This document shows, in pieces, positions 4,624-34,482 of a stretch of 39,275 bases of DNA. How positions within the stretch are numbered: the first letter of the stretch is position 1; the number at the start of each line of letters is the position of its first letter. The position numbers and the translations under genes are program-made. Below the pieces are notes generated by a model, which was given only the letters and a program-made list of their open reading frames with translations, ran no database searches and was not told the DNA's origin. Origin of the DNA: a virus; IMG/VR virus record IMGVR_UViG_3300033144_002476, positions 1 to 39,275 of that record. The stretch is one strand, 5' to 3'.

Positions 4624-5047
4624 GTTCCTCCTCCTTCTTCGCTTTGTGGACAGAAGATGAAGAGCACCCGTCAATCCTACTAACTTCATCGCAATACAAA
4701 GGGTTCGTCAGGGTGCTCTCTTGTGCACGTCCACCACTCTCCGATTTAATCAAAGAGTGCGTAGTTTTGATAATATCTGTCTCTTTTTCTAATATTCCAT
4801 ATTCTTTAAGAATCTCTAGACACTTGTTTATGTGTTTACATTTTCCTTCTATTTGTTCTCCACGAAATTGAAAATGTGGACAAGTGCATGACATGTTTGT
4901 TATTCCTAGTTCGTTTAGTCTGTCTATGTTTATTTCTACTTCATATGGAGCTTTTTCTTTTTTAGATCCGTGAACTATGAACTCGAATACTTCTGAGTAG
5001 TCGTCTAGTTCTTTGCTTGCTTTTATTCTAAATGGTTGTATTTTCAT
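4613..5047 (-). CDS. SWIM-type zinc-finger protein
   Basis: CTCPHFQFRGEQIEGKCKH matches CxCxnCxH. The likely start is MKIQPF at 5047 after an AAAGGAGA SD; the track ORF extends to 5149. Confidence 0.6.
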   Translation of the reverse strand: MKIQPFRIKASKELDDYSEVFEFIVHGSKKEKAPYEVEINIDRLNELGITNMSCTCPHFQFRGEQIEGKCKHINKCLEILKEYGILEKETDIIKTTHSLIKSESGGRAQESTLTNPLYCDEVSRIDGCSSSSVHKAKKEEEHEQ

Positions 5048-5187
5048 AGTATCTCCTTTATTAACAAAACAAGTAAAATACATATTATACTTATTGCTAT
5101 TTCTTGTATTGTTTGTTTTTTCATTATAATAGGGTTTATAGTCCCCCACGACTGTGACGTAAAAAAATAAATTAAATTTATGTCTAT

Positions 5188-6995: not shown

Positions 6996-7133
6996 CTATA
7001 TAAACCCTTCGGTTTGTGAATAATACTCTTTTAATTCTTCTAAAAACTTCTTATGTTCTCTTTCCTCGTCGCTGTTACGTTCCCAGAATGGTTTATGATT
7101 CCAGAAGTAGTCAAATATTTGTTTAGGATTCAT
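6996..7133 (-). CDS. hypothetical protein (45 aa, below track cutoff)
   Basis: Hand translation MNPKQIFDYFWNHKPFWERNSDEE... The ATG overlaps the 3' end of the GIY-YIG ORF. Confidence 0.4.
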   Translation of the reverse strand: MNPKQIFDYFWNHKPFWERNSDEEREHKKFLEELKEYYSQTEGFI

Positions 7134-7431
7134 TATATTCCTCGATTAATTTTAGTTTTTTATTAAGTGATAATCTTTTTATTTGCATTTCTCTTTGATG
7201 TGCTGTGTATGGATTGTCGAATGATTCCATATAAACAAAGTGAAGTGGGTTTATTTTATTTCTCATATAATTAGAACGAATACCAGAACGATGCTCAGCA
7301 AGTCTTCTCTTTGGATCCCATGTCATGCCAGTATAATATATTATTTTATCATAAACAAATTCTTTAAATCTCCGATTATAATAATATTTCTCTGCTTTCA
7401 ATATATAAACGTAGTATGTTCTTGACACCAT
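7123..7431 (-). CDS. GIY-YIG nuclease, small YhbQ/UPF0213 (URI-domain) type
   Basis: YYVYILKAE...IIYYTGMTWDPKRRLAEHRSG...FVYMESF...AHQREMQIKR matches the GIY-YIG core pattern. Confidence 0.75.
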   Translation of the reverse strand: MVSRTYYVYILKAEKYYYNRRFKEFVYDKIIYYTGMTWDPKRRLAEHRSGIRSNYMRNKINPLHFVYMESFDNPYTAHQREMQIKRLSLNKKLKLIEEYNES

Positions 7432-9551: not shown

Positions 9552-12500
9552 TTAAATTGCTTCACCCAATGAATTTGCTGTATATTCTACAAATTGCCCT
9601 CTCATATGTACTGCATCAGAAATTGTATCTTGAACATCTCCGCTTAATCTTGTAACTTTCCAAAAAAAAGCTTTATCTGTTGCACTTGGTAAATCAATTC
9701 CGGGAACTTCTGCGACAATTAAACCATCACTTGTTGCCGACGCTGTGCTTACTATTGTTAAGGTTTCCTGTGCTCCGGCAGTTACATCTTCGTTAGGACT
9801 TATCCATAAATATTCTAATTGCCATTTACAATTTCCCGGACTAATTCCGTTAGCGTGCCACCCAATATTTAAAGTTATTGGGATAGTTATATCTATGTCG
9901 GGGGGGATTAAGAAAGTCCCACTTACACTTTCTTGATTAGCTTCTATTGCGTCTGAAAATTCCCAACAACCAGTTAATCCATCCTCAACAAATGTTGCAG
10001 GTTTTGCTCCTGGGGCTCTTATTCCATTAGCACCAATATAAATTTTCTTTTTTACCCTCGCTGTTCCATGCAAATTTATCTCTCCGTCTGATTTTATTTC
10101 TGTATAATTTACTGCTCCGCCAATATTAGAAGCACTAAAACTTGCACTTCCATCAGTAAAACTAACCCAAGCTACACCATTATCTCCAAATCCGGGAGTT
10201 TGAGCAGAACCTTTCCAAACAAATTTTCCAACTTCATTAATAAAATTATATCCACTTCCAAAACCAATGTGACTCCACCGAGCAGAACCACCAACTCTAT
10301 TTGGGGGGCTATCAACATTTCCTTTTAAATATAAATGCTTTTGAGATAATTGGTCATCATTTACAACTAAAGCACCACCAATTTCATTATCTCCTTTGAT
10401 TTCTCCTGTAACTGTTAAATCTGTTGATGTTCTAATATCTCCATTAACATCTAATTTATAAGCAGGATTATCAATACCAATTCCAACATTTCCACCCTCT
10501 TCCCACACCATAACATTAGCCACACCGCTTTCAGTTAAACTTAATCCTGTTCCAGTAATAGCACCAAAATGCCAATCAGGATTAACATTATCATCTGCAA
10601 AATATAAAACATCTCCTATTTGAACTCTTCCAGCAACATCTAATTTATGAGTCCCTATTGGGCTTGTTCCTATTCCAATTCTATCAAATTGTCCTGTTCC
10701 GGTAACATTCAAATCTCCCAAAACATCTAAACGATTACTAACATCAATAATCCCATTAGTCCCATCAGAACTTATCTGTAAGTCTGTGTTAGTCGTTCCC
10801 CATTTAGAGATAATATTATCCCCCCCCATAAAATTATCTGTTTGAGAATATAATCCCCAGTTATTTGTTCCTTTTGTTTGTCCAGCGTCATAAAAAGCAT
10901 ATTGATTTGCTATTGCATAATTTCCACCAGTTCGTGCATCATCTGCATAAAAAGCATATCCGTTTCCAAAGATATTTGCAGTTCCTGTCCCAGGACCACC
11001 TGCACCTACTGCTTTTATTCTACTAAAATATCCAAATATATTTTGTCCGTAGTGTGTTAAATCATCATCATCTTCTAATTCTAAACCAACTTCTGCAAAT
11101 CCTCCAAGTAAATTAGAGGCAGCAGCACCAGACCCAACATTTGCAGGAGGTGTAAATGTCGCAGAAAACTTAACTCCATAACCAAAAGCTAATGAAGTTG
11201 AAGTATTAGAAATAAAATCATTTTGAATACCTGCTCCAACATTCGTTGTATCTGTTGTAAAAGGATTATTAATCCCAACACCCTCTGTAATACTTCCCCC
11301 ATTAAAAGCACCTTGTCCTGCTGTTATATCTCCAGCCCCAAAATCCCAGTCTCCTGTCATGCTCCCGTCGGTGATTGTGTTAGTGCCGAGGTCTAAAGTT
11401 GTTGCATTAATTGTTGTTGCAGAAAAATCATGACTCCCCAAATCAACATCAGTCGTCGCACCAGTATAAGGAACCAAATCAGAAATTGCTGTGCTTGAAA
11501 ATTCTAAAGCAGTTCCACCAGTATTTTCTTGAAGTAATCTATTAGTTGAAATAGTATAAGCACTAGGTGTATCTGTTAATCCTAAAAATGTTGTAATACC
11601 GCTTGCTCCTGCGCCTGCTCCTGCTGTTGTATTTGGTAAAAAACCTCTTAAATCTTGAGTTTCATATAGACTCCAAACTCCACCAGTATTGACAAAAGTA
11701 AATCTTGCAATCAAAAAGCCTACTCCTTGAAAGGCTTTAGGGATTGTATAAACTGAACTTGCCCCTGCATCTACTACTGCTTGTTCTGGGAAGTTTTTAT
11801 TATAAGTACCGATTGGCATATTAGCCATTAAATGTGATGGTTCACCACTTTTATTTGCCGTTCCCCATACAACTACACTAAAACTTGTATTAAGTAATGG
11901 GTCTCCAACTGCATCGGTAGTAATATCTGATAAATCTAACACTTCTGTGTAGGATCCGGCAAAATCATTAACCACAATAACATGGTCGCCTATTGTATCT
12001 CCAGGAGTTGCACTTGGAATTACTTCTTCTACGGTAATAATAAAATTAGGGTCAGACCAAATAGTACTTACCACAGTATATAATCCTTCATTACCATTAA
12101 CTCCGTGAACATTAATTGTTTTACCTTCTGGGAAAACGTTTGTTAAATCTCCATCTCCACTAATTGTGAAAGTTTTATTTCCTTGATTAACCGCGTCTAT
12201 AGTATATTGAGTCATATCCTGCAATGGAAAAGGATGTCTATGCATTTGATAAATAACACCAGAAGTATTTTTTATCCAAACTTCGTCTGCTGGTCCAATG
12301 TCTACTGAACCTTCACAGCCAGAATCCCACTGTGCTTCGAATTGTCTTAACTTTTCTCCTATATGAGATAAATGTCCTTGGTTAGAAGTAGTATCCTGAA
12401 TCTCATCATTCCAATTCTGATTTCTTAATGCGCCCTCTGTTTCTGTTGTTGCAGCAGTTTGTAAGAAAACTTGCGCAACTTTAATATGTTCAAAGGTTGT

Positions 12501-13337
12501 GGGAAATGCAGAAGTACTTACTGTTAATTCTTTTGTACTCTTTGGAATATAAATATAATTAGTTTGTGGTGTATCATCAGTACCTTGAGTTAATTCAATA
12601 GTAGCTGGAGGACTTGTATCAAACATTGTAAATCCATCAGAAAACATCATTGTTAAATCTGGATGTCCATTACTTGGTTCAAGTGTTCCTGTAATAGTTG
12701 TACCATCACTTGAGGTTCTAAAATCGAAAGATTCTCTAATTACACCATTCCAAAAATTAACAAATGTATCTTCTAATTCACCTTTAACAGAAACTACAAT
12801 TTCTCCATCTAATTCACCTACAATAGAAACTCCGCCTATTTGAATTGGATAATTTGGAAACTCTGGTTTGTCTGCAGTGAATGCTCCAGCTGTATCTGGG
12901 CTAACATAAACATTATCACCAACAATAAAATCAGATGTATCAATTCCCCGAACATTTCCTCTTTGTGTTGCAATCCCAGAACCCCCTGTTGGAATATTCA
13001 TAGTTGCTACCCAAATTGCTCTGCTTATCCCATCAGGAGTGTTAGCTTGAGCTAATGCAACATTTGGGATACCTAATGTTGCTCCTGCAATAGGATGAAT
13101 TACTTGACCGTTTAAAATATCTTCTCCAGTTGTATTATAAACCAAAAACCAGTCTTCAAAGCCTACTTGTAAATTAGGACCACGACCAGTACAAATATCA
13201 AGTGTTGTTTCTTTATTGTTCCAAGCAACATGACCAGCTTCTGTGCATTCCTCTGTTAGTCCTGTACGAAAATTAAGTTGTCTAAATCTATTTGATTTTA
13301 GTCTATTTAGTATGTCATCGTATTCTGTTTTAACCAT
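9552..13337 (-). CDS. large tail fibre / receptor-binding (adhesin-like) protein, 1261 aa
   Basis: Very long Gly/Thr/Asn-rich ORF with repetitive beta-rich segments, in the structural gene cluster. TAATG coupling to the upstream gene. Confidence 0.6.
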   Translation of the reverse strand: MVKTEYDDILNRLKSNRFRQLNFRTGLTEECTEAGHVAWNNKETTLDICTGRGPNLQVGFEDWFLVYNTTGEDILNGQVIHPIAGATLGIPNVALAQANTPDGISRAIWVATMNIPTGGSGIATQRGNVRGIDTSDFIVGDNVYVSPDTAGAFTADKPEFPNYPIQIGGVSIVGELDGEIVVSVKGELEDTFVNFWNGVIRESFDFRTSSDGTTITGTLEPSNGHPDLTMMFSDGFTMFDTSPPATIELTQGTDDTPQTNYIYIPKSTKELTVSTSAFPTTFEHIKVAQVFLQTAATTETEGALRNQNWNDEIQDTTSNQGHLSHIGEKLRQFEAQWDSGCEGSVDIGPADEVWIKNTSGVIYQMHRHPFPLQDMTQYTIDAVNQGNKTFTISGDGDLTNVFPEGKTINVHGVNGNEGLYTVVSTIWSDPNFIITVEEVIPSATPGDTIGDHVIVVNDFAGSYTEVLDLSDITTDAVGDPLLNTSFSVVVWGTANKSGEPSHLMANMPIGTYNKNFPEQAVVDAGASSVYTIPKAFQGVGFLIARFTFVNTGGVWSLYETQDLRGFLPNTTAGAGAGASGITTFLGLTDTPSAYTISTNRLLQENTGGTALEFSSTAISDLVPYTGATTDVDLGSHDFSATTINATTLDLGTNTITDGSMTGDWDFGAGDITAGQGAFNGGSITEGVGINNPFTTDTTNVGAGIQNDFISNTSTSLAFGYGVKFSATFTPPANVGSGAAASNLLGGFAEVGLELEDDDDLTHYGQNIFGYFSRIKAVGAGGPGTGTANIFGNGYAFYADDARTGGNYAIANQYAFYDAGQTKGTNNWGLYSQTDNFMGGDNIISKWGTTNTDLQISSDGTNGIIDVSNRLDVLGDLNVTGTGQFDRIGIGTSPIGTHKLDVAGRVQIGDVLYFADDNVNPDWHFGAITGTGLSLTESGVANVMVWEEGGNVGIGIDNPAYKLDVNGDIRTSTDLTVTGEIKGDNEIGGALVVNDDQLSQKHLYLKGNVDSPPNRVGGSARWSHIGFGSGYNFINEVGKFVWKGSAQTPGFGDNGVAWVSFTDGSASFSASNIGGAVNYTEIKSDGEINLHGTARVKKKIYIGANGIRAPGAKPATFVEDGLTGCWEFSDAIEANQESVSGTFLIPPDIDITIPITLNIGWHANGISPGNCKWQLEYLWISPNEDVTAGAQETLTIVSTASATSDGLIVAEVPGIDLPSATDKAFFWKVTRLSGDVQDTISDAVHMRGQFVEYTANSLGEAI

Positions 13338-13687: not shown

Positions 13688-14024
13688 CTTCTTTCTCCTT
13701 ACATTTCTTTGATTCGATTACTTGTTCTACTATTTCTCCTTCGCCGTCTTCTTTTTCTATTTCAAAGAATTCTTCAGGAAATTCTTCAACTGATTCGTCT
13801 GATTCGCTAATGTTTATTACCTTAATTATTCCTGGTTGGTTTAGGTATCTTTCAACGAACATTATGTTTTCTGTTTGGTCTGCGTATTTTTCTACTATAC
13901 ACTTGATTACAAATATATCATCGTTTGTATAAAGTGTCCAACTATCATCATTTTCTATTACGAATATTCTAGAGTTACTTAGATATTTAGTTTGAAATGT
14001 AAACCAATCAATTTCGACTTTCAC
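13677..14024 (-). CDS. hypothetical acidic protein (115 aa; start moved to GTG 14024)
   Basis: GTG 14024 forms a GTGA overlap with the Mu-F gene stop and follows AAGGTGAT. The track start is 14057. Confidence 0.55.
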   Translation of the reverse strand: MKVEIDWFTFQTKYLSNSRIFVIENDDSWTLYTNDDIFVIKCIVEKYADQTENIMFVERYLNQPGIIKVINISESDESVEEFPEEFFEIEKEDGEGEIVEQVIESKKCKEKEDGD

Positions 14025-14668
14025 TTTATCACCTTTATTCGTAAAATACTTCTGCACGACACGTGGAAAGGACTATTTTGAGATTTAATTGTTTTGTTGT
14101 CTACTTTAACTACAAACTCTTTATCAAGTGGAATAGATTGTTCTGGTGTACCGTATTTAGCAAATTCTTTTTTACATATATTAGAAGTTCTATCGTCCAT
14201 TGTAACGTCTAACCATTTTTCTAATTTAAGTCCAGTCTGACTTGCTTGGTTGGCTGCGTCGAGAGTTCCTTGATTATTTGCTCGTAATGTCTCGGTTCGT
14301 AGAATTGTTTTAAGTCTTGTTTGATATTTTTTATCTTTAAACAGTTTCTTGACTCGTTTAGATAACTCAGTTGTTGTTTCTCCGTTTAGTATTCCTCTTT
14401 GAATTTCTTGTCTTAATTGATTTGAAATAGTGTCGCCTGCAGCGTCAATGTTTTCTGATACATAATCTTGTAAGAAATTTAAGTCTTTAGACTTTGGTAC
14501 CAAATTAATTGTTAAGTCTAAGTCTTCGTCTACTTTTTCGATTGCACTTATATATTGAGAACTAATCATATTATTTATTACTACTTTGAACTTGTCTAGC
14601 CTAAAAATTGTTTTAAATTTTTCAAGCAATATATCTACTAATGACTTTTCACAAATCGAGGGACTCAT
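14021..14668 (-). CDS. head morphogenesis protein, Mu-F / SPP1 gp7-like
   Basis: TETLRANNQG...DDRTSNICK...SPFHVSCRS matches the family pattern (PPxHxxCRC-like end). Lies immediately downstream of the portal gene. Confidence 0.75.
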   Translation of the reverse strand: MSPSICEKSLVDILLEKFKTIFRLDKFKVVINNMISSQYISAIEKVDEDLDLTINLVPKSKDLNFLQDYVSENIDAAGDTISNQLRQEIQRGILNGETTTELSKRVKKLFKDKKYQTRLKTILRTETLRANNQGTLDAANQASQTGLKLEKWLDVTMDDRTSNICKKEFAKYGTPEQSIPLDKEFVVKVDNKTIKSQNSPFHVSCRSILRIKVIK

Positions 14669-16292
14669 TTGGAAGTTCCTCCAATGTTTTCACAATGTCT
14701 TTTTCTACTCCGTCTATGTAAGAATTAAGCTCACTTAGGGGTGTTTTCTTTGCTTTTACTTCTGGTTTTTTTTGTATTACTTCCTTTGGTTTTTCCTTTG
14801 GTTTATCACCTTCTTTTTCCGCAGGATTATTTAAGTTAGCAGTTTTCTCCATTAATTCCATTTCTTGTTCACGTCTTTCGTCAAGTCCTTCTTTAAGTTC
14901 TTCTAAATTAATTCCTCTTTCCTTTGCGATCATCATTTCTGTTTTGATTCCTAAATCTTTTTCCATTTTAAGTCTAGTAAGCTCTTTGATGTCGTCGTCT
15001 ATGTCACTTACGTCAAATTCAAACTGAAGAGGCACATCTGCAAAGTCTGCCATTTCACTTCCTTCTGTGAAGAATTCTGGGACTATTTGCGTGTTTAAAT
15101 GATATTGAATTACTTTAAGAAGTGGTCCAAGTGCTTTACGTTTAGCGTTTTTAATTTGTGCATCACCTGTTGCTTTATTGGAATCTTGGCTGAACCCTAA
15201 TTCATCCGCAGTTACACCGAAATTCATCCAAAGAACTTTAGTAAACCATTCTTGCTGGGCGATTATCTCCATTTCTTTCGAGGAAAGTTGAAACGGAACG
15301 AACTTAGCAGGAGAACTTACGATAGGTATTTTATTCCAAATCTTTCGCATAAAACCAAACTCATCTTCTTTTCTAGTTTCTTTTTCCATATTTTCACGAT
15401 ATTGAGCCATTTGTCCGGCTGTTGCTCCAAGTAGTTCTATTACTCCGTCAGGCATATTATTGTTTATGTAAATGTCTAGGTTGTAATCTATTCCATATAC
15501 TAAGTTAAGAATTGTCTTCATTAAAACACTTACAGGAGAAGTACCATATATTGAATCAGATCGAGGATTTTGCATCATGTAAACTACTTCTCTTTTTCCG
15601 AAAGGTACTGGCATAGAACCTGCTGTCCATCCGTATTGAAAATAAGCCGCCTGTTCTTTGTAAAGTAGACTATATTGTTTCATTAATTGTTGTTGAGAAT
15701 TGGTTTGGTTTCCTGCTAAGTCCATTCCTACTCCAGTAAATCCGTCTGGAAGTGGTGTTACGAAGTCTGCTCTGTTCCCCATATAACCATATATGTCAGG
15801 GTTTTTTAAGAACAGGTCACCAGATCGTGCGAACATTTGTTTAAAATCTCCACTTACATCAAATACTTTTACTAATACTCCTGCGTCTACTTCACAAATA
15901 TCTGTAATAAGTTGTCGTATAATATGATTAAAAGATTCTTCATTTCCGTTTGGGTTTCTAAAGAATTTTGTTATTTCTTTTATTTTATCGGTATAATCTA
16001 CTTCTTCTTCCTCTTTAGAATTAACATCACTAAATTCTTCTTTTACATTAACGGACCACTTAATACTACTTGCTTCATCTGCTAAAGTCTTGATAACAGA
16101 AAAAACATAAGGATTATTAGACAACTTTTTAAGCATAGGAGTATTATCTGTTCGAGGCATACCAAAAGGGGGCCTGTACAACACACCTGGAATATATGCT
16201 TTAAAAATATCATCACCCTTTGGTTTAGTATATGCTTGTGTAACTGACCCAGAAGTGTCTACTTTTGCTTTAGTGAAGATGTTCCATGCCAT
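14649..16292 (-). CDS. portal protein
   Basis: 547 aa. PRSDSIYGTSPVSVL, NNNMPDGVIELLG and a C-terminal acidic/Lys-rich tail are typical of portals. Followed by the Mu-F-like gene. Confidence 0.8.
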   Translation of the reverse strand: MAWNIFTKAKVDTSGSVTQAYTKPKGDDIFKAYIPGVLYRPPFGMPRTDNTPMLKKLSNNPYVFSVIKTLADEASSIKWSVNVKEEFSDVNSKEEEEVDYTDKIKEITKFFRNPNGNEESFNHIIRQLITDICEVDAGVLVKVFDVSGDFKQMFARSGDLFLKNPDIYGYMGNRADFVTPLPDGFTGVGMDLAGNQTNSQQQLMKQYSLLYKEQAAYFQYGWTAGSMPVPFGKREVVYMMQNPRSDSIYGTSPVSVLMKTILNLVYGIDYNLDIYINNNMPDGVIELLGATAGQMAQYRENMEKETRKEDEFGFMRKIWNKIPIVSSPAKFVPFQLSSKEMEIIAQQEWFTKVLWMNFGVTADELGFSQDSNKATGDAQIKNAKRKALGPLLKVIQYHLNTQIVPEFFTEGSEMADFADVPLQFEFDVSDIDDDIKELTRLKMEKDLGIKTEMMIAKERGINLEELKEGLDERREQEMELMEKTANLNNPAEKEGDKPKEKPKEVIQKKPEVKAKKTPLSELNSYIDGVEKDIVKTLEELPNESLDL

Positions 16293-18681: not shown

Positions 18682-20550
18682 TCAATGAATATTACTAAAT
18701 TTAACATGGTTCACCTCCGCAGTTGATGTGTTGTTTTCTGTAAGCCTAAAACGTAAGTCTTGACCTGTATTAGAAAATGTGTGAGTAGTATTATTAGTTG
18801 CTGTTTCCCAATTTGAATTATCAGCTGTTACTTCAATCAAGACTGAACCAGACTCAATGTCTATGTCTACGTCTATTGAAGTTATAACTCCGTTTCGTAG
18901 GTCAATTGATTTACTAAGTGCAACTTGACCAGAAGTAAAGTCAAGACTGCCACTTGCCCATGTAGCTGTACCTGAATCGTCTTCAAAGTCTTGGTCGATA
19001 AAGTCTTCAGTATAGATGTTTTCAAATTGTTCAACGAAGTTATCTATCATAGAATTATCATAGTCTTCATCCCATTCTGAGTTATCCCATGTTTCTCTAT
19101 CCCAAAGTGCGTCTGTTGAAGTATCTCGAGTTTGTAGTTTTCTATAACGTGGACTTATTTGAACTTCATTATAAAAATCTCTTAACTCTAAAATTAAATC
19201 TTGGTTTTTAAGGCTTAATTGTTCTTCTATTCGTTTTAGTCTTTCTTCTACATTAATTTGCCAATCTGCTAATCTAATTGCTTCATCGCCTACTGTTATT
19301 TCTTGATTAGAACCTGGGTATTTGATAACTTGCTTTGTTATTATTAATTCTTTATTTATATTAGGCGTGCTTACTGAATCTACTATCTTAACTCTGTCTC
19401 CTACATTTAAACTAATCGTTGAGCTGCTTCTAACTAATAAATCACCAATCAAAAAAGGAACAGAAAATTTAGATAGTAATTCAGCTGTACGAGCTTCTGC
19501 GTCTGCTACTGTTTGAATATCTGTTAGGGTTATTTGTTTTTCCCATGTTCCGTATGTGTCTATTGAATCTTGACTTATTTGATGTATTGGGCTAGGTGCT
19601 AACCAAGTGTAGTTTACTATTGCGTTCTCGGTTGGGAAACTTGTCCCTTCGGTTGGGATTATTTTTTTGTTTTCTCGGTCTACATAATAATAATGTCCAG
19701 TTGTAGAGTCTTTTGTACCACCTATTTTAACTGTTACTGGCGGAGTACTTGAATCTAAAATTAATTCAACGTTTTCAGGGGTTTTGTCAAGTAAAATTCC
19801 ATCTGTGTCGAAGTTAGCAGTAGTCCCGATTGTTCCGTATTCCGTTCCGTTTGGAAGTCTTATTTGTGTCTGACTTACTGCTCCGTCTACTCTTAAGTCG
19901 TTTACCATACGAGAAGTGTCATTAGTCCATTTTGGAACTCCTAGAATTTGAGTTCCTACTGTTAAAGTAAGAGTACTATCAGAATAGCCTTTTGGTTCAA
20001 AGTGTACTGTGTCATTTACTGGGTCATAAAATATTTGATATTCTACTGCCTTAGCGAGTGCGGTTAGTCTTTCCCAGATGTCTGTGTGGGTACATCTAAA
20101 TTCTCCTATTGTTTTTCCTTCTATTGTTCCTGTGGCTACTACGCTTGCAGTTAAGCCTCCGTGTGTTTCAATTAAGTCTTTTGCTATATCACTGATAACT
20201 CCTGCTTGTGGTCCGGATGATTCATATACTGTATTAACGTTTTTTCTTACTAAGTCCCACATTTTATCGTAACAAGTCAAATCTACTCGTCCGCCGTCTG
20301 GGCTTATTTCGGCTATAAAACCAGAGAAAACTTTTTTATCTGTGCTAGTAATAAAACCTGTCCATACTTGAATTACTTGACCTACTTTTAAACTAACTAA
20401 ATCTTCTACCGATGAGAGTAATGTCATTGCTAATTGGCTTATAACTACGTCAGATGTTCGTTCATATTCCCAACTTAATACTTTTTTCTCAGTAGAACTA
20501 TCGTCACGTACGGTTACTCCATCAATAACAACCTTGCAAAGTAACGGCAT
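18682..20550 (-). CDS. tail hub / tail-associated protein (622 aa)
   Basis: Position downstream of the tape measure. Size and N-terminal region are consistent with hub (gpD/Tal-like) proteins. GGAGGA SD. Confidence 0.45.
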   Translation of the reverse strand: MPLLCKVVIDGVTVRDDSSTEKKVLSWEYERTSDVVISQLAMTLLSSVEDLVSLKVGQVIQVWTGFITSTDKKVFSGFIAEISPDGGRVDLTCYDKMWDLVRKNVNTVYESSGPQAGVISDIAKDLIETHGGLTASVVATGTIEGKTIGEFRCTHTDIWERLTALAKAVEYQIFYDPVNDTVHFEPKGYSDSTLTLTVGTQILGVPKWTNDTSRMVNDLRVDGAVSQTQIRLPNGTEYGTIGTTANFDTDGILLDKTPENVELILDSSTPPVTVKIGGTKDSTTGHYYYVDRENKKIIPTEGTSFPTENAIVNYTWLAPSPIHQISQDSIDTYGTWEKQITLTDIQTVADAEARTAELLSKFSVPFLIGDLLVRSSSTISLNVGDRVKIVDSVSTPNINKELIITKQVIKYPGSNQEITVGDEAIRLADWQINVEERLKRIEEQLSLKNQDLILELRDFYNEVQISPRYRKLQTRDTSTDALWDRETWDNSEWDEDYDNSMIDNFVEQFENIYTEDFIDQDFEDDSGTATWASGSLDFTSGQVALSKSIDLRNGVITSIDVDIDIESGSVLIEVTADNSNWETATNNTTHTFSNTGQDLRFRLTENNTSTAEVNHVKFSNIH

Positions 20551-20918
20551 CAGATTCCTCCTTCAAATAAAGTAAGCGTATAACCTAGTTTATTTATGTC
20601 TGCTGCCTGTTTATTCCACGAAAAGTTCTGTACAAGTACTGAATAACTTGCTGGACTTGTAATAAAACTAGATACAAAAGTTGAACCATCTTGTGCTCCG
20701 TTTACTATGGCTTCTATGTTTGCTATAAAAGTTTTCTGTGCTGCTTCAGTTCCTTCAAATATTCCAGTAATTGTAATAGTTCTTAATACTCCAAATAAGT
20801 CTATTAAAATAGCATCATCGCTATCAGACCTAGGGAGTGGTGTCTGAAATAAACTAGAATCTTTAGTATGGTCTTCGGATTGAATATCACCAAGATCTAC
20901 ACTATCTAATGTTGCGAT
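20550..20918 (-). CDS. tail component (122 aa) with no canonical start codon; proposed ATC start
   Basis: Stop-free frame with no in-frame ATG/GTG/TTG. AAGGGGGA lies 4 nt before ATC-GCA. Its TGA shares an A with the ATG of the next gene (TGATG). Confidence 0.6.
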   Translation of the reverse strand: MATLDSVDLGDIQSEDHTKDSSLFQTPLPRSDSDDAILIDLFGVLRTITITGIFEGTEAAQKTFIANIEAIVNGAQDGSTFVSSFITSPASYSVLVQNFSWNKQAADINKLGYTLTLFEGGI

Positions 20919-21031
20919 TTTATCCCCCTTATTTCTTTAATTAATTCCATGTGGTGTAGTTTTTCATTTTGAGTTCTAAGTAATAGAATTTGTTTTATTT
21001 CTTTTAGTATTTTGATTAATTCGTTTTCCAT
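20906..21031 (-). CDS. mini-protein (41 aa, below track cutoff)
   Basis: Hand translation MENELIKILKEIKQILLLRTQNEKLHHMELIKEIRGIKSQH. TAATG overlap with the tape-measure stop. Confidence 0.4.
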   Translation of the reverse strand: MENELIKILKEIKQILLLRTQNEKLHHMELIKEIRGIKSQH

Positions 21032-22017
21032 TATATTGAACTGAACCCCCTATTGCCTCGCTTTTGTAATTCTCTACTTATTGAGTCTGTTAATTTACGA
21101 ATATCAGAATCGTCTCGTATTGTTGGATTGTTTATATTAATTGTAGTTCCCATCCCGCCCATTTTACTTAAAGGTATTACTGCTTCTGGTCCTGCTTCAC
21201 CGATTAAAGCGGTTGTTGGGCTTGTTACTATTCCCCCGTTTGCAAGATGTGGTATATCAATACCGGGTATCCAATTTATAACATCAATCAAACCATTTAT
21301 CATAGTTTTAAACCCATTAGCAATTAAAGTTCCAACTCCCTTAAGTCCTTCCCATATAAAATTCCAAATCTTTTGACCTAAATCTGATATAAATGAAAGT
21401 CCGTCTAAGAAAAATTGCCATATCTTACTTCCTATTCCTAGTATGAATTGAAATCCAGAAACTATTGCGTCCCAAAGCCAAGTTCCAGCGGACACTATCA
21501 AATCTATTACAAATCCAAATGCCTGAGTTAGTTTATCCCAAATCCATCCAGCTACTGCGACAATTATTTCTACTAATAATTTAAAAGTTTCCCATAGTAA
21601 TTTCCCTATTCCAATTATTATTGTTAAAAGTATTTTTGCTATTGTTATCAGAACTTTTAATAATGCAGGTCCTAAATATTGTTTTAAAAATTCACCTAGA
21701 TTAATTTCACCACCGAATAATTTTGTAAGTCCTTCTATAATTGAAACAACTGCTTTTGTTAATTCTACTATAAGTGGCATAAGCGGTAAAAATATAACTA
21801 AGAATAATAAACTTAGAACTTTAAAAAGTGGTTGAAGTATCTTTAAAACATCACCAAGCAAACTAGATAAACCATCGGCAATTAAATTACCTACTGCCAC
21901 GGCCTTGGTGTTCTTTTTCATTTCTTTGTTCTGTTTCTTTAAGGTATCATCACCCACACCGTTTCCACTAGAACCATTACCGCCTTTTCCCGTAGGGACT
22001 CGAATCTCAAATGCAAT
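21031..22017 (-). CDS. tail tape measure protein (short; start uncertain, ATT 22017 or GTG 21957)
   Basis: Long hydrophobic helical core and a C-terminal ALIGEAGPEAVIPL motif typical of tape measures. Position after the chaperone pair. Confidence 0.75.
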   Translation of the reverse strand: MAFEIRVPTGKGGNGSSGNGVGDDTLKKQNKEMKKNTKAVAVGNLIADGLSSLLGDVLKILQPLFKVLSLLFLVIFLPLMPLIVELTKAVVSIIEGLTKLFGGEINLGEFLKQYLGPALLKVLITIAKILLTIIIGIGKLLWETFKLLVEIIVAVAGWIWDKLTQAFGFVIDLIVSAGTWLWDAIVSGFQFILGIGSKIWQFFLDGLSFISDLGQKIWNFIWEGLKGVGTLIANGFKTMINGLIDVINWIPGIDIPHLANGGIVTSPTTALIGEAGPEAVIPLSKMGGMGTTININNPTIRDDSDIRKLTDSISRELQKRGNRGFSSI

Positions 22018-22032
22018 AGTATTTACCTCTCA

Positions 22033-22251
22033 TTATTTACTAAACATTTGTTTGAACATTTTTGCCCAATTTTTCCAATATGTTTGCTCCTTTTCATTTT
22101 GTAGTGTAATAATTGATTGTATTTTATCATCTGTTAAATTCCTCCAATATCCTTGTCCTTTTCCAAAATAGCTTAAAAAAAACCAATCAAGATAATCTGC
22201 TTGTAGTTCTGCATCGTTTTCATGCATCCCTTTAGCAAATTCTTTAATCAA
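22033..22251 (-). CDS. tail assembly chaperone, -1 frame extension (T-like part)
   Basis: Frame is -1 relative to 22248..22640 and open from within the A9 run. No independent RBS. Confidence 0.6.
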   Translation of the reverse strand: MIKEFAKGMHENDAELQADYLDWFFLSYFGKGQGYWRNLTDDKIQSIITLQNEKEQTYWKNWAKMFKQMFSK

Positions 22252-22640
22252 TCTTTTTTTTTATCTGATGAAACAGACCCAGTTACTAATTTGTACTCGT
22301 TGAACAAATATGTTGATATTTCTTCTGGCAGACTAGATATAAATGCTTCAGTTGTAGGAAACGGTGCTTCCGTGATAACTTTAGACAATACTCCAATCTG
22401 ATAACCAACAGAATCCATACTAGCGTTTGGTTGTGTTCCTACTACTTTAATAGAAGCGGTTTTTTTGACCAATTCTCTATGTTCGCCTGAGGTTAGTTTT
22501 CTTACCTTGATTATAACGTCTTCGTTATTAACATTAAGTTCAATATCAAAAGTATCTATTACTACTTGATTATCGTTGAAACTAAAAGAGGGAACCGTAT
22601 TTGATTCTACTTGCTCTTGCTCTGGGGATTTTTCTTCCAT
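22248..22640 (-). CDS. tail assembly chaperone (G-like)
   Basis: 130-aa acidic protein between tube and tape measure genes, ending ...SSDKKKD on an A9 run. Confidence 0.65.
   Translation of the reverse strand: MEEKSPEQEQVESNTVPSFSFNDNQVVIDTFDIELNVNNEDVIIKVRKLTSGEHRELVKKTASIKVVGTQPNASMDSVGYQIGVLSKVITEAPFPTTEAFISSLPEEISTYLFNEYKLVTGSVSSDKKKD
22254..22262 (-). other. A9 slippery run (A AAA AAA in frame) for programmed -1 frameshift
   Basis: Minus strand GAT AAA AAA AAA GAT TGA. A -1 slip reads ...KKK-RLIKEFAKG... into 22033..22251. Confidence 0.65.
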
Positions 22641-22705: not shown

Positions 22706-23698
22706 TTAAGTTGCCTCTTTCGGTGCTGTCTCGACGTCGTTTGTATAAATAATACTTGAACATCCTCTAGCCCATCCACTTACTTCTTCTTTTACTATTT
22801 CGCCTACGTTTTGTGGTAGACTTTCTTCGTTTAGATGTACACCTGTCAAATTAATGTCAAGTATATCACCATCGTCATTTGTAAAAGTTAGTTCAAGTGT
22901 TGCTATTTCTGTTCCAGATCCTTCGTCTGGTGCACTAGCTGAATTAGTACCATTCATAAAGTAAGTAAGTAAGCTTGTATAATCGTTAAATGCTGCCGTC
23001 ATAGAGAAGTTGTATTCTCTTTGTTTTGCTACATTTGCTGTTTTAAATCTACTTCCTATTCCGTATAAACTTTCTGCTGAATTATTTATAGTTAATTCAA
23101 AGTTTTGTACTGCTGCGATTTGTGTTCCGTCTGGCATTTCAATACTTCCATGTGCGAACGTAAAAACTGGTTCAATGTCTACGTTATTTGAAACTTTGGT
23201 TGTTCCTAGTGTTTCGTATCTATAAGAACAATCTAGACTAAACTTAACTGCTTCGTCTACTGCTGCTGTGATAGTAGCTGATTCACACTTTACTCCTACG
23301 ATTGTACTAGCAAAGTCTGTAGTTCCTAGTTCAAAACTAGACTTAACAGAAAAACTTGGTACAATATCTGCTTCTGTGTAAGTATGTGTATATGCTCCAG
23401 TTGTTCCTGCGTCAGTATTAGCGCCTAGAACTCCTAGTAACCAATAAGCGTTTGATAAACTTCCTTCTACGGAAACTTTACCGTTAAATTGTTTATTTAC
23501 AGTTGCTGTAGCATTTCTTGCTCCTACTCCTACAACTCGTTCAGCATTATTTTCTCGGCTTACTGTTGCACTTACTCCTTGTCCAAATGGCACATATGTT
23601 TCGTCAGATTCTGTATGACTTGCTGCTGCGTTTGCCCATTCAGACTGTTTTTCGTATGCGTATAAAAAGACACTTTCGGCTCCTGATATGTATGAAAT
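22706..23698 (-). CDS. major tail (tube) protein; proposed ATT start at 23698 (track GTG start 23593)
   Basis: Position immediately upstream of the chaperone pair. GAGGAGG lies 9 nt before ATT with the same ACTAAAT context as the capsid gene. The 35-codon extension is stop-free. Confidence 0.55.
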   Translation of the reverse strand: MSYISGAESVFLYAYEKQSEWANAAASHTESDETYVPFGQGVSATVSRENNAERVVGVGARNATATVNKQFNGKVSVEGSLSNAYWLLGVLGANTDAGTTGAYTHTYTEADIVPSFSVKSSFELGTTDFASTIVGVKCESATITAAVDEAVKFSLDCSYRYETLGTTKVSNNVDIEPVFTFAHGSIEMPDGTQIAAVQNFELTINNSAESLYGIGSRFKTANVAKQREYNFSMTAAFNDYTSLLTYFMNGTNSASAPDEGSGTEIATLELTFTNDDGDILDINLTGVHLNEESLPQNVGEIVKEEVSGWARGCSSIIYTNDVETAPKEAT

Positions 23699-23699
23699 T

Positions 23700-23873
23700 T
23701 TATTTTTCCTCCTCTATTTGATTTAGTTTTAACTTTGCAAGTAATGTGGCTTCTAGTTTTCTTTTTTTGATTTCGTCAAGTGTTAGTACTTTGTGTTCTA
23801 GTCCGGGAATTTTTCGAGCTTTATCTCTTACTGGTTTTAATTTGACTTCTTTAGTTTTCTTTTTAGATTCCAT
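23700..23873 (-). CDS. Lys-rich mini-protein (57 aa)
   Basis: The ATG at 23873 overlaps the end of the upstream gene. The track start is TTG 23882. Confidence 0.5.
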   Translation of the reverse strand: MESKKKTKEVKLKPVRDKARKIPGLEHKVLTLDEIKKRKLEATLLAKLKLNQIEEEK

Positions 23874-26365: not shown

Positions 26366-27364
26366 TTAACTTTCGTCAATAAAGGTATCACCATTAACAG
26401 CATTCGATGGTTCGACTGTTCCAATCCACTCTACACTAGTAAATCCAGAAGGTCTAGCTGTACCTGCGGTGCTACCATGATTAATATGCCCCTTTACATT
26501 TGTTTTAGTATATGAAACTTTATCATTAAATGTATCCCAATCTGTATCAGATAATGCTCCTGTTGTGCTTGTAGAAGATAAAGCCATACTTAATGCTTGA
26601 GTAGATAAAGATAATCCATTTGCTGTTCCAATTGTTACGGCACTATGTAATGTATCTTTTTGGGTTTGTGTTATATGTTCGTAACTTGTTCCGTCATTTA
26701 AACCTGCTAAAGAATTATGTGCAAAATCTCCCGCAGAATAAGTAGTATTTGTATAATTTCCTGAATGAATGTTTGTTGCTCCTTGGTCTGAAGTCCAGTC
26801 TATTATTTGATTTGCCGATAGTGTTGCTTGAAAGCCTGTATGTCCTGCGCTTGCATAATCTAATTGAGAAAAAGAAGCATGAGCCGTCGTGTTGGTGTCG
26901 GTATAATTAGCAGCATTAATAACTGCTGGGCTTTGGTCGGCTGTCCAATCAACTTCGACATCTTTAGTGAATCCCATCGTTGAAATATCACTTTCACTTA
27001 ATTGTGTATTCGTATCTGTATAATTAGCAGCATTAATATTAGTTGCGCCCAAATCAGTTGTCCAGTCTAAATGTTCATTTGCACTAACTCCGCTTAAATC
27101 ATCGTGAGTAAAATCTGAACTTACTTGGTCATCACTACCTGGAGCGTGTCTATCTGTTGTGTTAGCATCTACATCAGTATTATTACTTACTTCTGTGTCA
27201 AAGTCTGTTACTTGAGAAGCTGTTAAAGATAGATTATCTTGAATGTTTTTATAAGTGATTTTCTTGTTAGTAGCTGTGCCACTTACGTCGTCTACTATGG
27301 TAAGTAAATCTGCATCTACTGGGGTTGTTAATTCATCTAATGCAGTGATTTTCTGATTTGCTAT
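26366..27364 (-). CDS. fibre-like protein (332 aa) lacking a canonical start; proposed ATA start at 27364
   Basis: The frame is open 104 codons upstream of the track TTG (27052). The extension reads IANQKITALDELTTPVDADLLTIVDD..., typical of fibre N-termini. The DWT.D...N..NYT repeat spans the TTG. Confidence 0.6.
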   Translation of the reverse strand: MANQKITALDELTTPVDADLLTIVDDVSGTATNKKITYKNIQDNLSLTASQVTDFDTEVSNNTDVDANTTDRHAPGSDDQVSSDFTHDDLSGVSANEHLDWTTDLGATNINAANYTDTNTQLSESDISTMGFTKDVEVDWTADQSPAVINAANYTDTNTTAHASFSQLDYASAGHTGFQATLSANQIIDWTSDQGATNIHSGNYTNTTYSAGDFAHNSLAGLNDGTSYEHITQTQKDTLHSAVTIGTANGLSLSTQALSMALSSTSTTGALSDTDWDTFNDKVSYTKTNVKGHINHGSTAGTARPSGFTSVEWIGTVEPSNAVNGDTFIDES

Positions 27365-31075: not shown

Positions 31076-32167
31076 TTAAGCACTGATTTCAGTGATACTT
31101 GAACAAAAGGCTGTATTTTTGATAATCAAAGTTTCGTACACTTTTAACATAAACTTATCAGAATCGTTATTTTTACCGAAATCTTCATAAGTCATGTCTT
31201 GTAGAACTCTCATTTCAACTACACTCATATCAAGAAAGTAAATTGCTTTACTTCCAGACACATTTGTTAGATACTGACTTGGTATAACTGGTATCTGTCC
31301 AACCATTGTATTAAGAACGATTGTACTGAATCCCCAGAATACTTCCTTAGTAGGTTGCATGTAACCAATCTTAGCTGTCAATAAGCCTAGTAGATCTTGA
31401 AATACTCCACTAGAACAAACTGCTAAGTTAGGTCTTCCACCATCATCGAAAGCATATCTAACTGCTGTATCAATATCATCTAGAGTCATAGCAGAAGTGT
31501 TTTTATCAACTGTGTTTGTAGTACTCATTAGCTTTACAATTCCTGAGAACTGTGTAGCATCTGTACTTGCATCACCGTTAACAATCAAATTCTCTTCTAG
31601 TTCTCTAATCTCTCGAGCCTTTACTAGAATTTCTAACTGCTTTGCATTTGTACCAACTGAATCATTAAATGGTCCTGTTGCTCCACCTGCGGAAGTTAGT
31701 CCTCCTAAAATCCAACTTGGCATTCCTGCTTTTGCTGGACCTGTAACTCTACCGATTGCGTATAGATATTTAATAGCTGTACTTTTCCTATCGTAAGTAG
31801 TAGTAGTATCAGTCAAAACTGCATCTTCTATTGCTGTAACTCCTCCTCCTTTTGCTGTAAGTTGATTGTAATCTGCAAACATTCCTTGGTTAGTTACTCT
31901 TGGTACTAATTCTACCAAAGGCGTATACTTCCTAGTAACATCTACAATTCTTGGGTCTACATTTACTGGGATCATTCCGTAACCTGCTGTTCCTGAACCA
32001 CCTGCTTGTGTGTCAAGAGCTTTTAAGGCAATATCCTTAAACTTGTTACCGATAGCTTCCAAAGTAGTCTCGCCTGCTACACCTTTTAATTGTACCCCCA
32101 TAGGGTTACTATAACAGGTGTGATTTGGCATATCCAAAAAACTTACTGCGTAATTTCCATTTTCCAT
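31076..32167 (-). CDS. major capsid protein (HK97-fold type)
   Basis: 363 aa, directly after the protease-scaffold gene. Strong GGAGGA SD. Sequence character is typical of HK97-like capsid proteins. Confidence 0.75.
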   Translation of the reverse strand: MENGNYAVSFLDMPNHTCYSNPMGVQLKGVAGETTLEAIGNKFKDIALKALDTQAGGSGTAGYGMIPVNVDPRIVDVTRKYTPLVELVPRVTNQGMFADYNQLTAKGGGVTAIEDAVLTDTTTTYDRKSTAIKYLYAIGRVTGPAKAGMPSWILGGLTSAGGATGPFNDSVGTNAKQLEILVKAREIRELEENLIVNGDASTDATQFSGIVKLMSTTNTVDKNTSAMTLDDIDTAVRYAFDDGGRPNLAVCSSGVFQDLLGLLTAKIGYMQPTKEVFWGFSTIVLNTMVGQIPVIPSQYLTNVSGSKAIYFLDMSVVEMRVLQDMTYEDFGKNNDSDKFMLKVYETLIIKNTAFCSSITEISA

Positions 32168-32262
32168 ATTTTTTCCTCCATTGTGATTTAGTTTTGATTT
32201 TAAGTTTTCTCTTGATTTTTTGGTCTTGCTTGACCGTTTTTATGACTGTTCTGTCTGGCTAA

Positions 32263-33225
32263 TTACTGAATTAAGTCCAAAGTTCCAGTGATAGATTTCT
32301 CTACAACCTTTTTTGGTGTTTCAGATAATGTGCTCTTAAAGACTGGGCTTTCCTTGATTGTCTTGATTTCGTTAGCCTGTTTTTCAACAAGTGCTTTCAA
32401 TTCAGCGACAACTTTGTCAGTAGCAGATTTTGCTTCTACTTCTGGCTTAGCTTCTTCTTTAGATTCTTCTTCTGCCTTTTCTTCTACTGGAGCTTCTGCT
32501 TCTTTAGATTCTTCTTTTACTTCTTCTTTTACTTCAGCTTCAGGGGTCTCGACAGTTTCAGTCTCTACTTTTTCTGTTTCTTCCATATTTTTATCCTCCA
32601 TAGATTTAGTTAGAAGTGTAATAAGTGATTTACTGACAAGTACTTTTTCTTCTTTAGTGTCTTTGATTGCTTTCAAGAAAATAGATTTCATTGTGTGTCC
32701 TGTCATTTTAGCGCCTTCGTTTACTGGTGTAGCAGTCAAAGCAACATTTAATAATTCTAAATCGTCTATTAACCTGACTGTTGTATCTCCTATTGATTTT
32801 TCTACTGTACGAAGTGGTTTAAATGCTATACTAAACGAATCAAGAAATCCGTCTTTGATACTTCCCCATAGTGCTTTGTATTTAGGAGAATGAGAATTAA
32901 GTTGTGCCTTTACCCACAAACCTCTATCATCTACTTTTGCTTCTACTATCTTTCCTACTGGGAGAATTGTATTGTCGTCTCTAAAGGCTTCGTGTTCGTA
33001 GTCTAGTGTGATTGTTTTTTCACTGATTTGTTTTAGCATTGATTTCATTGCTGCGGGGGTAATTAAATCGTTGTATAAATCAATCTCAGGTACTGAAATA
33101 TAACCTGTTACATAAGACTGCTTATCTCCCTTAAGCCCTACGCTAGAATAAGTAATCTTATCAGTAAAGAAACTATAATCTAATTGGCTATTCGCTTGTT
33201 GTATCAACTCTTGCTCTGCATTCAT
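32263..33225 (-). CDS. prohead protease (HK97/S78 family) fused to an acidic scaffold-like C-terminal region
   Basis: DYEHEAF...LPVGKIVEAKVDDRGLWVKAQL...GFLDSFSIAF matches the S78 pattern. The C-terminal half is a Glu/Lys/Val-rich coil. Confidence 0.8.
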   Translation of the reverse strand: MNAEQELIQQANSQLDYSFFTDKITYSSVGLKGDKQSYVTGYISVPEIDLYNDLITPAAMKSMLKQISEKTITLDYEHEAFRDDNTILPVGKIVEAKVDDRGLWVKAQLNSHSPKYKALWGSIKDGFLDSFSIAFKPLRTVEKSIGDTTVRLIDDLELLNVALTATPVNEGAKMTGHTMKSIFLKAIKDTKEEKVLVSKSLITLLTKSMEDKNMEETEKVETETVETPEAEVKEEVKEESKEAEAPVEEKAEEESKEEAKPEVEAKSATDKVVAELKALVEKQANEIKTIKESPVFKSTLSETPKKVVEKSITGTLDLIQ

Positions 33226-33245
33226 AAATAAATAAAATATAAAAT

Positions 33246-33261
33246 ACTTTTAAAACCAACG
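33246..33261 (-). promoter_or_regulatory. conserved box CGTTGGTTTTAAAAGT
   Basis: Lies 3 nt after the stop of 33265..33711. The protease ATG follows 20 nt later with no SD. Confidence 0.6.
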
Positions 33262-33264
33262 AAA

Positions 33265-33711
33265 TTACTCGATGGCTTTTTTTAGGTCTGCTAGTTCTTT
33301 TTCTGCTGGTTTAACTCTTGTTTCTAGAAACTCTTTTTGACTTCTAAGGTTTTTTACCTTGTTTATTTTTTCTAGATGATTGTTAAGTACTAACATTTTT
33401 TGTTTGAATACCTTTGTTCCTTTGCCTATTTGTTTACTACAAGCTTCGACTATTTTATCGTCTAAGTCGATTGTGTCGCCTAATGTTTTCAATTGCTTGT
33501 CGATTTGTTCTAATTGACCTTTTCCTTGTTCTAGGTCGTTTTCTAAGAACTTTACTAAGACTGGAATCTTATCTGGATTAATTTTTTGAATCTGTGTTCC
33601 GTTAGCTGTTCCTACTAATTCAGATTTACCGTCTATTGGTAAATTTATTTCATCGCTATGCGTAACTGTGACTTCCAGATGATCTTTCATCATTCTAAAT
33701 CTTTTTTCCAT
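33265..33711 (-). CDS. coiled-coil protein (148 aa)
   Basis: ORF track. AAAGGAGGA SD. Heptad-like Leu/Lys/Glu pattern. Confidence 0.6.
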   Translation of the reverse strand: MEKRFRMMKDHLEVTVTHSDEINLPIDGKSELVGTANGTQIQKINPDKIPVLVKFLENDLEQGKGQLEQIDKQLKTLGDTIDLDDKIVEACSKQIGKGTKVFKQKMLVLNNHLEKINKVKNLRSQKEFLETRVKPAEKELADLKKAIE

Positions 33712-33988
33712 TTTTATCCTCCTTTGATTTATTTAGATTGCTATAACTTACCCATGCTTTTTTTTGAAATACTTTTTTTTCTGCTGGACTCATATCACTC
33801 CATCCAAGTATTGAACCTACTTTTTGAACTCTAAACACTCTACCACATTTTCTACATTCAAATAGTAAAACGTTATCGTATAATTCTTTTACTCTGTATA
33901 ATCCTACTGATTTGCTTACTTTTTTACTGTGTTCGCCTTCTTTGCCACAATAGACGCATCTTAAGTAATGAGTTTTATTGTTATCCAT
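33695..33988 (-). CDS. zinc-ribbon protein (97 aa; start moved to ATG 33988)
   Basis: CVYCG...CRKCG. ATG 33988 overlaps the end of the upstream gene by 8 nt. The track start is 34078. Confidence 0.5.
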   Translation of the reverse strand: MDNNKTHYLRCVYCGKEGEHSKKVSKSVGLYRVKELYDNVLLFECRKCGRVFRVQKVGSILGWSDMSPAEKKVFQKKAWVSYSNLNKSKEDKNGKKI

Positions 33989-34250
33989 ATGTACATCCTG
34001 GTGGAATCCAAAACTTACGTTTACCACTCTTTCCTTTAAATTGTTTGCATAATAATGGTTTCTTCTCGTGAATATCACACAAATTATCTTCAGTTAAGTG
34101 AGGGCATACCATTGGGACTATTATAGTGTTGTTTTCTATTTTACATCCGTGTGCTTTGTAATATTCTAATTGAATTCTTTGTTCTCTTAGGTTTGGTACT
34201 TCAAATACTAATTGACGACAGCATGCTCCGCACATTTTACAGTTACCCAT
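33981..34250 (-). CDS. YkgJ/UPF0153-like cysteine-cluster (putative Fe-S or Zn) protein
   Basis: CKMCGACC...CPHL....CDIHEKKPLLCKQF matches the CxxCxxCC ... C.I...RP..C pattern. Confidence 0.55.
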   Translation of the reverse strand: MGNCKMCGACCRQLVFEVPNLREQRIQLEYYKAHGCKIENNTIIVPMVCPHLTEDNLCDIHEKKPLLCKQFKGKSGKRKFWIPPGCTYG

Positions 34251-34482
34251 TTAATAACCTCTTGCTTAATTCATTCATTAATTTTAATTTCTTGTTCTCA
34301 TGTAAATTATTAAACTGATTATCTCTTACTATTTCAAGATTTGAACGATTTATTACTGGGAAATTATTTAATGATACTTTTGGTGTATATCTTGATTCTA
34401 TTGGGTTACGCTCTTTGGAACAAGTTACCCCGTACTTATCCCATAACTTTGCATTATGATTTACATTAATTATAGTTTTCAT
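34243..34482 (-). CDS. hypothetical protein (79 aa)
   Basis: ORF track. ATGA overlap with the terminase stop. Confidence 0.55.
   Translation of the reverse strand: MKTIINVNHNAKLWDKYGVTCSKERNPIESRYTPKVSLNNFPVINRSNLEIVRDNQFNNLHENKKLKLMNELSKRLLNG

Follow-up and report, generated by a model that had tools for sequence, protein, structure and literature searches.

The stretch of DNA considered here, IMG/VR virus record IMGVR_UViG_3300033144_002476 (39,275 nucleotides (nt), referred to at its whole length as the window), is a 39-kb tailed-phage genome of about 34% G+C in which all genes lie on the minus strand. Our analysis concerns a 122-codon frame of its tail module, designated g122, which is situated between the tape measure and baseplate hub genes and is missing from the window's list of open reading frames (ORFs), together with the codon at which its translation would begin. 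The features at this locus are the following:

20550 to 20918, minus strand: g122, a tail gene of 122 amino acids (aa), an open frame without a canonical start, recognized by its homologues, by the fold obtained with AlphaFold (AF2) and Foldseek, and by its place between the tape measure and hub genes
20916 to 20918, minus strand: ATC, the probable initiation codon of g122, aligned with the ATG of homologues beginning MATL or MASL and with ATC or ATA elsewhere
20923 to 20930, minus strand: Shine-Dalgarno (SD) site AAGGGGGA, read directly, 4 nt before the ATC of g122
20906 to 21031, minus strand: conserved small ORF of 41 codons (41 aa), its ATG overlapping the tape measure stop (TAATG), with a TAG stop
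18682 to 20550, minus strand: baseplate hub gene, 622 aa (PHROG baseplate hub, E=2e-7), its ATG overlapping the TGA of g122

The g122 frame (minus strand, 20936..20550) opens after a TAA at 20939-20937 and closes at a TGA at 20552-20550, and direct reading found ATG, GTG and TTG all absent from its 129 sense codons. Only six of these codons lie upstream of the ATC, with no in-frame ATG, GTG or TTG among them, and the order of elements at the start is GAAAT-AAGGGGGA-TAAA-ATC-GCA, the ATC occupying 20918-20916. At the opposite end, the final A of the g122 TGA is also the first A of the hub ATG. The 41-codon ORF overlaps the beginning of g122 by about 31 nt, with g122 in the -1 frame relative to it, and its TAG begins 10 nt past the first base of the ATC. 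These readings bear out the original prediction, which had described a 369-nt frame at 20550-20918 devoid of ATG, GTG and TTG, a strong SD site 4 nt before ATC-GCA (20918), which is the one at 20930-20923, a TGATG junction with the hub gene in which one A is common to both codons, and an overlap of the 41-codon ORF (20906..21031) with the g122 start, for which the -1 relation was confirmed. A lack of internal start-like codons is not rare in the window: ATG, GTG and TTG together make up 2.9% of its in-frame codons (P~0.027 for 121 codons having none), and 7 of its 63 genes contain no internal ATG, GTG or TTG. The oddity of g122 is its missing canonical start.

Because its translation has homologues at 50-82% identity and a predicted tail-tube fold, the g122 frame is, by every indication of its sequence, a real and functional tail gene, as had been supposed from its behavior at the locus. 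The 11 database homologues returned by a protein search share 22 invariant columns. An AlphaFold model built on homologue sequences, with a predicted local distance difference test score (pLDDT) of 77.8 and a predicted TM-score (pTM) of 0.70, was matched by Foldseek in the PDB to tail-tube-fold chains of baseplates, the best of these being phage Mu 9ki1_u (E=1.7e-4, TM 0.65), followed by chains of Bas63 (9ndy_A), E217 (8eon_A), Pam3 (7yfz_a), diffocin (8v3w_G) and SPP1 Dit (2x8k_C). The module runs in the order tube (22706-23698), chaperone, tape measure (21031-22017), 41-aa ORF, g122 and hub (18682-20550), and the succession of tape measure, g122 and hub is repeated in three relatives (L002, L004 and L006). 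Predicted fold and gene position together make it most likely that the g122 product belongs with the Dit and tube-initiator proteins, as a small ring of tube fold linking tube to hub. In both respects, a tape measure/hub position and a predicted tail-tube fold, it resembles Dit proteins (for example SPP1 gp19.1), lambda gpM and the tube-initiators of baseplates; however, it is much smaller than typical Dit proteins, being a single domain of 122 aa, and in contrast to curated Dit families it has no sequence match in Pfam or PHROG (no family at E<=0.01).

The point at which g122 translation starts is indicated by comparison with relatives, all of them metagenomic contigs. Homologues P0003, P0005-8, P0010 and P0011 start MAT(L/I) or MASL, residue for residue on the IATL of the window, and the DNA of L129 and L130 (encoding P0003 and P0008) carries ATG at exactly the window's ATC codon. 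The same position is occupied by ATG in about 24 other lineages read as DNA, including L006, L008-10 and L012; by ATC in the window, L001, L002/L003, L011/L014 and L126/L127; by ATA in L004/L005, L055 and L128; and by TTG in L069. We refer to ATT, ATC and ATA collectively as ATH, or AUH in the transcript. A GGAGG-type site at similar spacing precedes every g122 homologue start, regardless of the start codon. All four truncated database entries (P0001, P0002, P0004 and P0009) proved to be genes with an ATH start that had been called from an ATG or TTG further inside. Sequencing error is unlikely at the ATH starts, because several contigs show the same codon in separate assemblies (L002/L003, L004/L005 and L126/L127). 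Since most relatives carry ATG at the same codon, and others ATC or ATA, behind a conserved SD site, g122 translation very probably begins at the near-cognate AUC. This was the reading preferred at the outset, when a search for ATG at the corresponding codon of homologues had been proposed as a check; most do carry it, and the occurrence of ATG, ATC and ATA at one homologous codon behind a conserved SD site lends that preference support.

Other structural genes in the window begin in a similar manner:

22706 to 23698, minus strand: major tail tube gene, 330 aa, ATT start at 23698, SD site AGGAGG at 23713-23708, matching Pfam Phage_tube_2 (E=5e-21)
21031 to 22017, minus strand: tape measure gene, 328 aa, ATT start at 22017, SD site GAGGT 7 nt upstream, with PHROG tape-measure matches (best E=2e-15)
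26366 to 27364, minus strand: fibre-like gene, 332 aa, ATA start at 27364, the first canonical start lying 105 codons downstream

The Phage_tube_2 match starts at residue 7 of the tube protein, 29 codons ahead of codon 36, where the first canonical start lies; when tube proteins of four lineages are aligned from the ATH codon onward, their identity is 74-85% across the full length. The tape measure of the window opens with ATT-GCA-TTT-GAG, which aligns with ATG-GCA-TTT-GAA in L002 and L001; among 15 distinct tape measure starts, 14 are ATG and that of the window is the sole ATT. The fibre-like start, ATA-GCA-AAT-CAG-AAA-ATC-ACT (IANQKIT), aligns with the ATG starts of MADQKIT (L094) and MVDKKIT (L002); the 332-aa protein itself found no match in Pfam or PHROG. 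The SD site plus AT[T/C/A] pattern previously noted at 27364 (ATA-GCA), 23698 (ATT-TCA) and 22017 (ATT-GCA) is thus as described, each instance being matched in relatives by an aligned ATG or by an ATH start that is conserved. Across the genes of the window start codons are distributed as ATG 57, ATH 4, TTG 1 and GTG 1, so that ATH outnumbers every other class of non-ATG start, and each of its four occurrences is in a structural gene. The start of a 399-aa gene on the minus strand is ambiguous, lying either at an ATT (18222) with GGAGG 6 nt upstream or at an ATG two codons on (18216) with GGAGG 12 nt upstream; the former is a possible fifth member of the ATH starts. Genetic code table 11 includes the AUH codons among its starts. 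An alternative genetic code was considered for the window and rejected, given that TGA, TAG and TAA all serve as stops (TAA 40, TGA 18, TAG 5) and ORFs are intact under table 11. No phage tRNA genes were found in the window, leaving no tRNA to explain unusual initiation.

The extent of ATG/ATH exchange became apparent from a scan of IMG/VR with the tube alignment, which yielded 62 loci. Among 50 distinct start contexts of the tube gene, 27 have ATG, 11 ATC, 6 ATA, 4 ATT and 2 TTG, with GTG represented by none. By Fitch parsimony on a neighbour-joining tree of 44 proteins the tube gene has undergone at least 14 switches between ATG and ATH, a count that is approximate; the root state is ATG, and distant relatives (46-50% identity) have ATG throughout. 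Over the 31 N-terminal codons of the tube gene, all of them ahead of any canonical start, synonymous differences exceed non-synonymous ones (3200 vs 3003), in ATG and ATH lineages alike. This excess argues that the segment is translated and is under purifying selection. Overall, AUG and AUH appear to be freely exchanged at the starts of the tube gene and g122 across the group.

Elsewhere in the same loci such starts are few. Families g128, g129, g293 and g218 showed no ATH starts there, the hub family has one possible ATT start, and the 130-aa gene has two. The hub instance, in L002 at ~5114-5120, reads GGAGGAATATAAA-ATT-GTT-TTG, and those of the 130-aa gene, in L049 and L010, read AAGGAGTGTTAAA-ATT-TCA. 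When 701 long ORFs of the loci were scanned without bias, SD-plus-ATH starts were confined almost entirely to the tube and g122 families, with one further ATC in a variant Dit family (L030, 4705). AUH initiation had been proposed to be systematic in the tail module; what stands of this proposal is its recurrence, concentrated in the tube and g122 families, while in other families it is sporadic and from the rest of the genome it is absent. ATH use is therefore best described, on these comparisons, as gene-specific and recurrent, not genome-wide.

The surroundings of these starts have several features in common. SD strength at the tube gene is high, at about -11.6 to -11.9 kcal/mol, and does not differ between ATG and ATH groups, and compensation of ATH by a stronger SD site was rejected on that ground. 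Spacing between SD site and start falls at one value in 13 of 21 cases of the ATH group, compared with a range of 5-11 nt in the ATG group. A small ORF of ~35-100 aa precedes both the tube gene and g122 in nearly all lineages; ahead of the tube gene of the window it is the following:

23700 to 23873, minus strand: conserved small basic ORF, 57 aa, with the motif KKLMTDVAKGKIT, found in nearly all relatives

Its TAA ends one base before the tube ATT (TAA-A-ATT), the stop beginning at -4. Relative to the tube start, the small-ORF stop lies within ~30 nt in nearly all lineages, mostly at -10 to +16 nt; relative to the g122 start it lies at -4 to +71 nt across relatives and at +1 to +25 nt in the ATH lineages, and L004, L055, L038 and L043 have ATAG overlaps at the starts. 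That conserved small ORFs stop within a few bases of both the tube and g122 starts suggests, so far as gene arrangement can, translational coupling. The small ORFs fall into two protein families conserved in position and partly in sequence (L001-L074), a basic one that precedes the tube gene and a helical one that follows the tape measure, both ending at the start of the next gene; a search of the 41-aa ORF against Pfam and PHROG gave no match.

We propose that at g122 the ribosome would be positioned on the AUC by the strong SD site at good spacing, and that initiator tRNA would read AUH with a third-position mismatch, in which case the protein would begin with Met, not Ile. Ribosomes terminating at the 41-aa ORF, just past the AUC, could reinitiate there, and such reinitiation may help a codon that is weak in E. 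coli (Escherichia coli) to work. The genes would then form a coupled chain, from tape measure to 41-aa ORF to g122 to hub. The tube gene would represent the same arrangement, with a small ORF ending at its start followed by a strong SD site and ATT, and the tape measure (ATT) and fibre-like gene (ATA) would be two further structural genes of the window that use AUH. Termination-reinitiation at ATGA or TAATG overlaps, as in phage late operons, is similar in placing an upstream stop on or beside the downstream start and an SD site within the upstream coding sequence, the classical ATGA overlap being mirrored by the ATAG overlaps just mentioned; the difference is that here the restart codon is often AUH.

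Several considerations weigh against this interpretation. First, AUA, AUC and AUU initiate in E. coli at 1-2% of the level of AUG, compared with 10-100% for GUG and UUG (bioRxiv 10.1101/063800), an efficiency that is hard to square with a major tail tube protein. Second, the fold call for g122 is based on a moderate model and modest Foldseek E-values. Third, the distinct start contexts counted above are not phylogenetically independent, and the switch count shares the approximation of its neighbour-joining/Fitch derivation. An abundant tube gene that flips between AUG and AUH, with GUG never seen, is not the pattern expected from E. coli start codons. The tension with the E. coli values implies that the host proofreads starts differently, or that reinitiation relaxes the rule, or that output drops and is tolerated.

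An elaboration of AUC initiation, which we consider possible if on balance doubtful, is that the AUH starts constitute a regulatory device, making expression of the tube and Dit-like genes strictly dependent on the small ORF, or on low IF3 late in infection, and thereby setting timing or stoichiometry. It would accommodate the concentration of AUH in two gene families, in both of which a conserved small ORF lies ahead of the gene and ends at its start, and the narrow SD spacing of the ATH group, yet that spacing may come from shared ancestry, the ATG relatives share both the small-ORF architecture and the SD strength, so that the architecture is not AUH-specific, and the repeated switching on the tree resembles near-neutral exchange. 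A precedent for such a device is infC, whose AUU start is IF3-sensitive. Another is ebpA of Enterococcus faecalis, where an ATT start attenuates expression (PMC4447247).

Rather unlikely, in our estimation, is the stronger proposition that, where tail-gene starts are coupled, AUH functions nearly as well as AUG and is tolerated more readily than GUG or UUG. This would imply relaxed IF3-type proofreading of the third position, in the host or in the late infected cell, or reinitiation that bypasses proofreading. Were it true, gene finders in present use would systematically overlook one class of start sites in phage genomes from metagenomes.

Far less probable than either of these is a programmed -1 frameshift, the other route to g122 that had been put forward, by which a slip from the 41-aa ORF near AGG-GGG or AUA-AAA-U would fuse the small peptide to the 122-aa protein. 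The geometry is suitable, in that g122 lies in the -1 frame of the small ORF and overlaps it, and A-AAA in the window and L001 would allow slippage of a single tRNA-Lys. An upstream SD-like sequence can also stimulate -1 slippage, as in dnaX. However, neither AGG-GGG nor AUA-AAA-U is a canonical X XXY YYZ heptamer in the small-ORF frame, and no such heptamer occurs within the overlap in the window, L001, L002 or L004; those of L055 and L014 fall past the small-ORF stop, and L002 (ATA AGG AGA TTA CAA TCG) and L004 (GAG AAG ATA G) have no slippery run. In L055, moreover, the g122 frame is open for just one codon before the small-ORF stop, and the variable distance between that stop and the g122 start across relatives preserves no common overlap geometry. 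The start region is predicted to fold less stably than shuffled sequence (minimum free energy -9.4 kcal/mol vs a shuffle mean of -12.6, z=+1.13), no Rfam family was matched at the g122 start, and most relatives carry their own ATG at the start codon. With no conserved heptamer, no structure and a varying overlap, slippage on the two proposed sequences is not supported. The genuine -1 site of this genome, that of the G/GT tail assembly chaperone in the same module, has by contrast a perfect A AAA AAA heptamer, whereas the g122 start has neither a slippery heptamer nor a frame relation common to relatives. This textbook site (minus strand) is a nine-A run at 22254-22262 at the end of the 130-aa gene 22248..22640, reading GAT AAA AAA AAA GAT TGA, from which the -1 frame is open from 22260 to 22033, an extension of ~72 aa (codons) ending 13 nt before the tape measure ATT.

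Slightly more improbable still is that the ATC marks the loss of a start codon in a gene now silent or decaying as a pseudogene in this genome, for while ATG to ATC is a single substitution and the tube tree has ATG as its ancestral state, the g122 frame is intact and conserved, its SD site is retained, at least eight lineages, with proteins 50-82% identical to that of the window, maintain ATC or ATA, the product would be, from its fold and position, a structural ring needed by the tail, and the same pattern recurs in the tube gene, which is indispensable and whose N-terminus is under purifying selection.

AUC initiation of g122 can be compared with the few known cases of its kind. Only infC and pcnB are confirmed as AUU genes in E. 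coli (bioRxiv 10.1101/063800). These two and E. faecalis ebpA resemble the phage genes in having a near-cognate AUH codon behind an SD site, missed or misplaced by standard annotation. They differ in being isolated, conserved cases concerned with autoregulation or attenuation of low-abundance proteins; the phage group, in contrast, alternates AUC, AUA and AUU with AUG many times, its affected genes include that of the major tail tube, and at those positions GTG is absent and TTG rare. Near-cognate AUH initiation and translational coupling are thus both established, and what we did not find described is a recurrent, gene-specific exchange of ATG for ATC, ATA or ATT that runs through a phage group, affects a major structural gene and includes hardly any first-position variants. 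In the literature searched, AUH starts in phage structural genes were nowhere described as a clade-wide feature, an absence that applies to that library only.

From the perspective of annotation, the tail tube and Dit-like genes of these phages are missed or shortened by gene finders that admit ATG, GTG and TTG alone. Called tube proteins come out at 144 or ~296 aa where ~333 aa would be correct, and g122 is lost from the window's ORF list and shortened in the four database entries described above. Such miscalls corrupt protein families, structural predictions and viral annotation. If AUH works well in these phages, the group would also provide a natural test of the interplay between start-codon proofreading and translational coupling, its many matched pairs of ATG and ATH sequences being suited to reporter assays.

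The affiliation of the phage is distant from cultured viruses. No cultured close relatives were found, a megablast of 6 kb against INPHARED being without match; by tblastn the tube protein is 27-33% identical to those of Haloarcula tailed viruses and Bacillus phages, and TerL is ~25% identical to that of Vibrio phages. The closest cultured tube relatives are those of the haloarchaeal HCTV-1 and HCTV-16 (30% identity over 83% of the protein), ahead of Bacillus phages. A scan of GTDB with the tube alignment recovered only two short contigs of metagenome-assembled genomes, labelled 'uncultured Akkermansia' and 'Woesearchaeota', which we do not take as host evidence, regarding them as probably mis-binned viral contigs; a tube relative of 50% identity sits on the contig binned as Woesearchaeota. 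As the closest cultured tube relatives are haloarchaeal and one relative lies on a Woesearchaeota-binned contig, the host domain is, on sequence affinity, not certain.

Several other regions of the window, all on the minus strand, merit description. Gene order is unusual, in that the large terminase, protease and major capsid genes (31076-36980) lie upstream of the tail module, and the portal (14649-16292) and a Mu-F-like gene (14021-14668) downstream of it. These last are followed by a 1261-aa orphan (9552-13337) matching nothing in Pfam or PHROG. The terminase, of 833 aa, has N-terminal matches to DnaC-like and primase P-loop families. Within a C5 cytosine DNA methylase gene (3097-4689; PF00145, E=5e-78) lies a 436-codon ORF (3306-4616) in a different frame of the same strand, of a length unexpected for an off-frame ORF in DNA of low G+C content (35%); Ser, Glu, Lys and Gln are abundant in its translation, which found no match in Pfam. 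The early region also contains a GIY-YIG homing-endonuclease-like gene at 7123-7431 (PF01541, E=1.5e-10).

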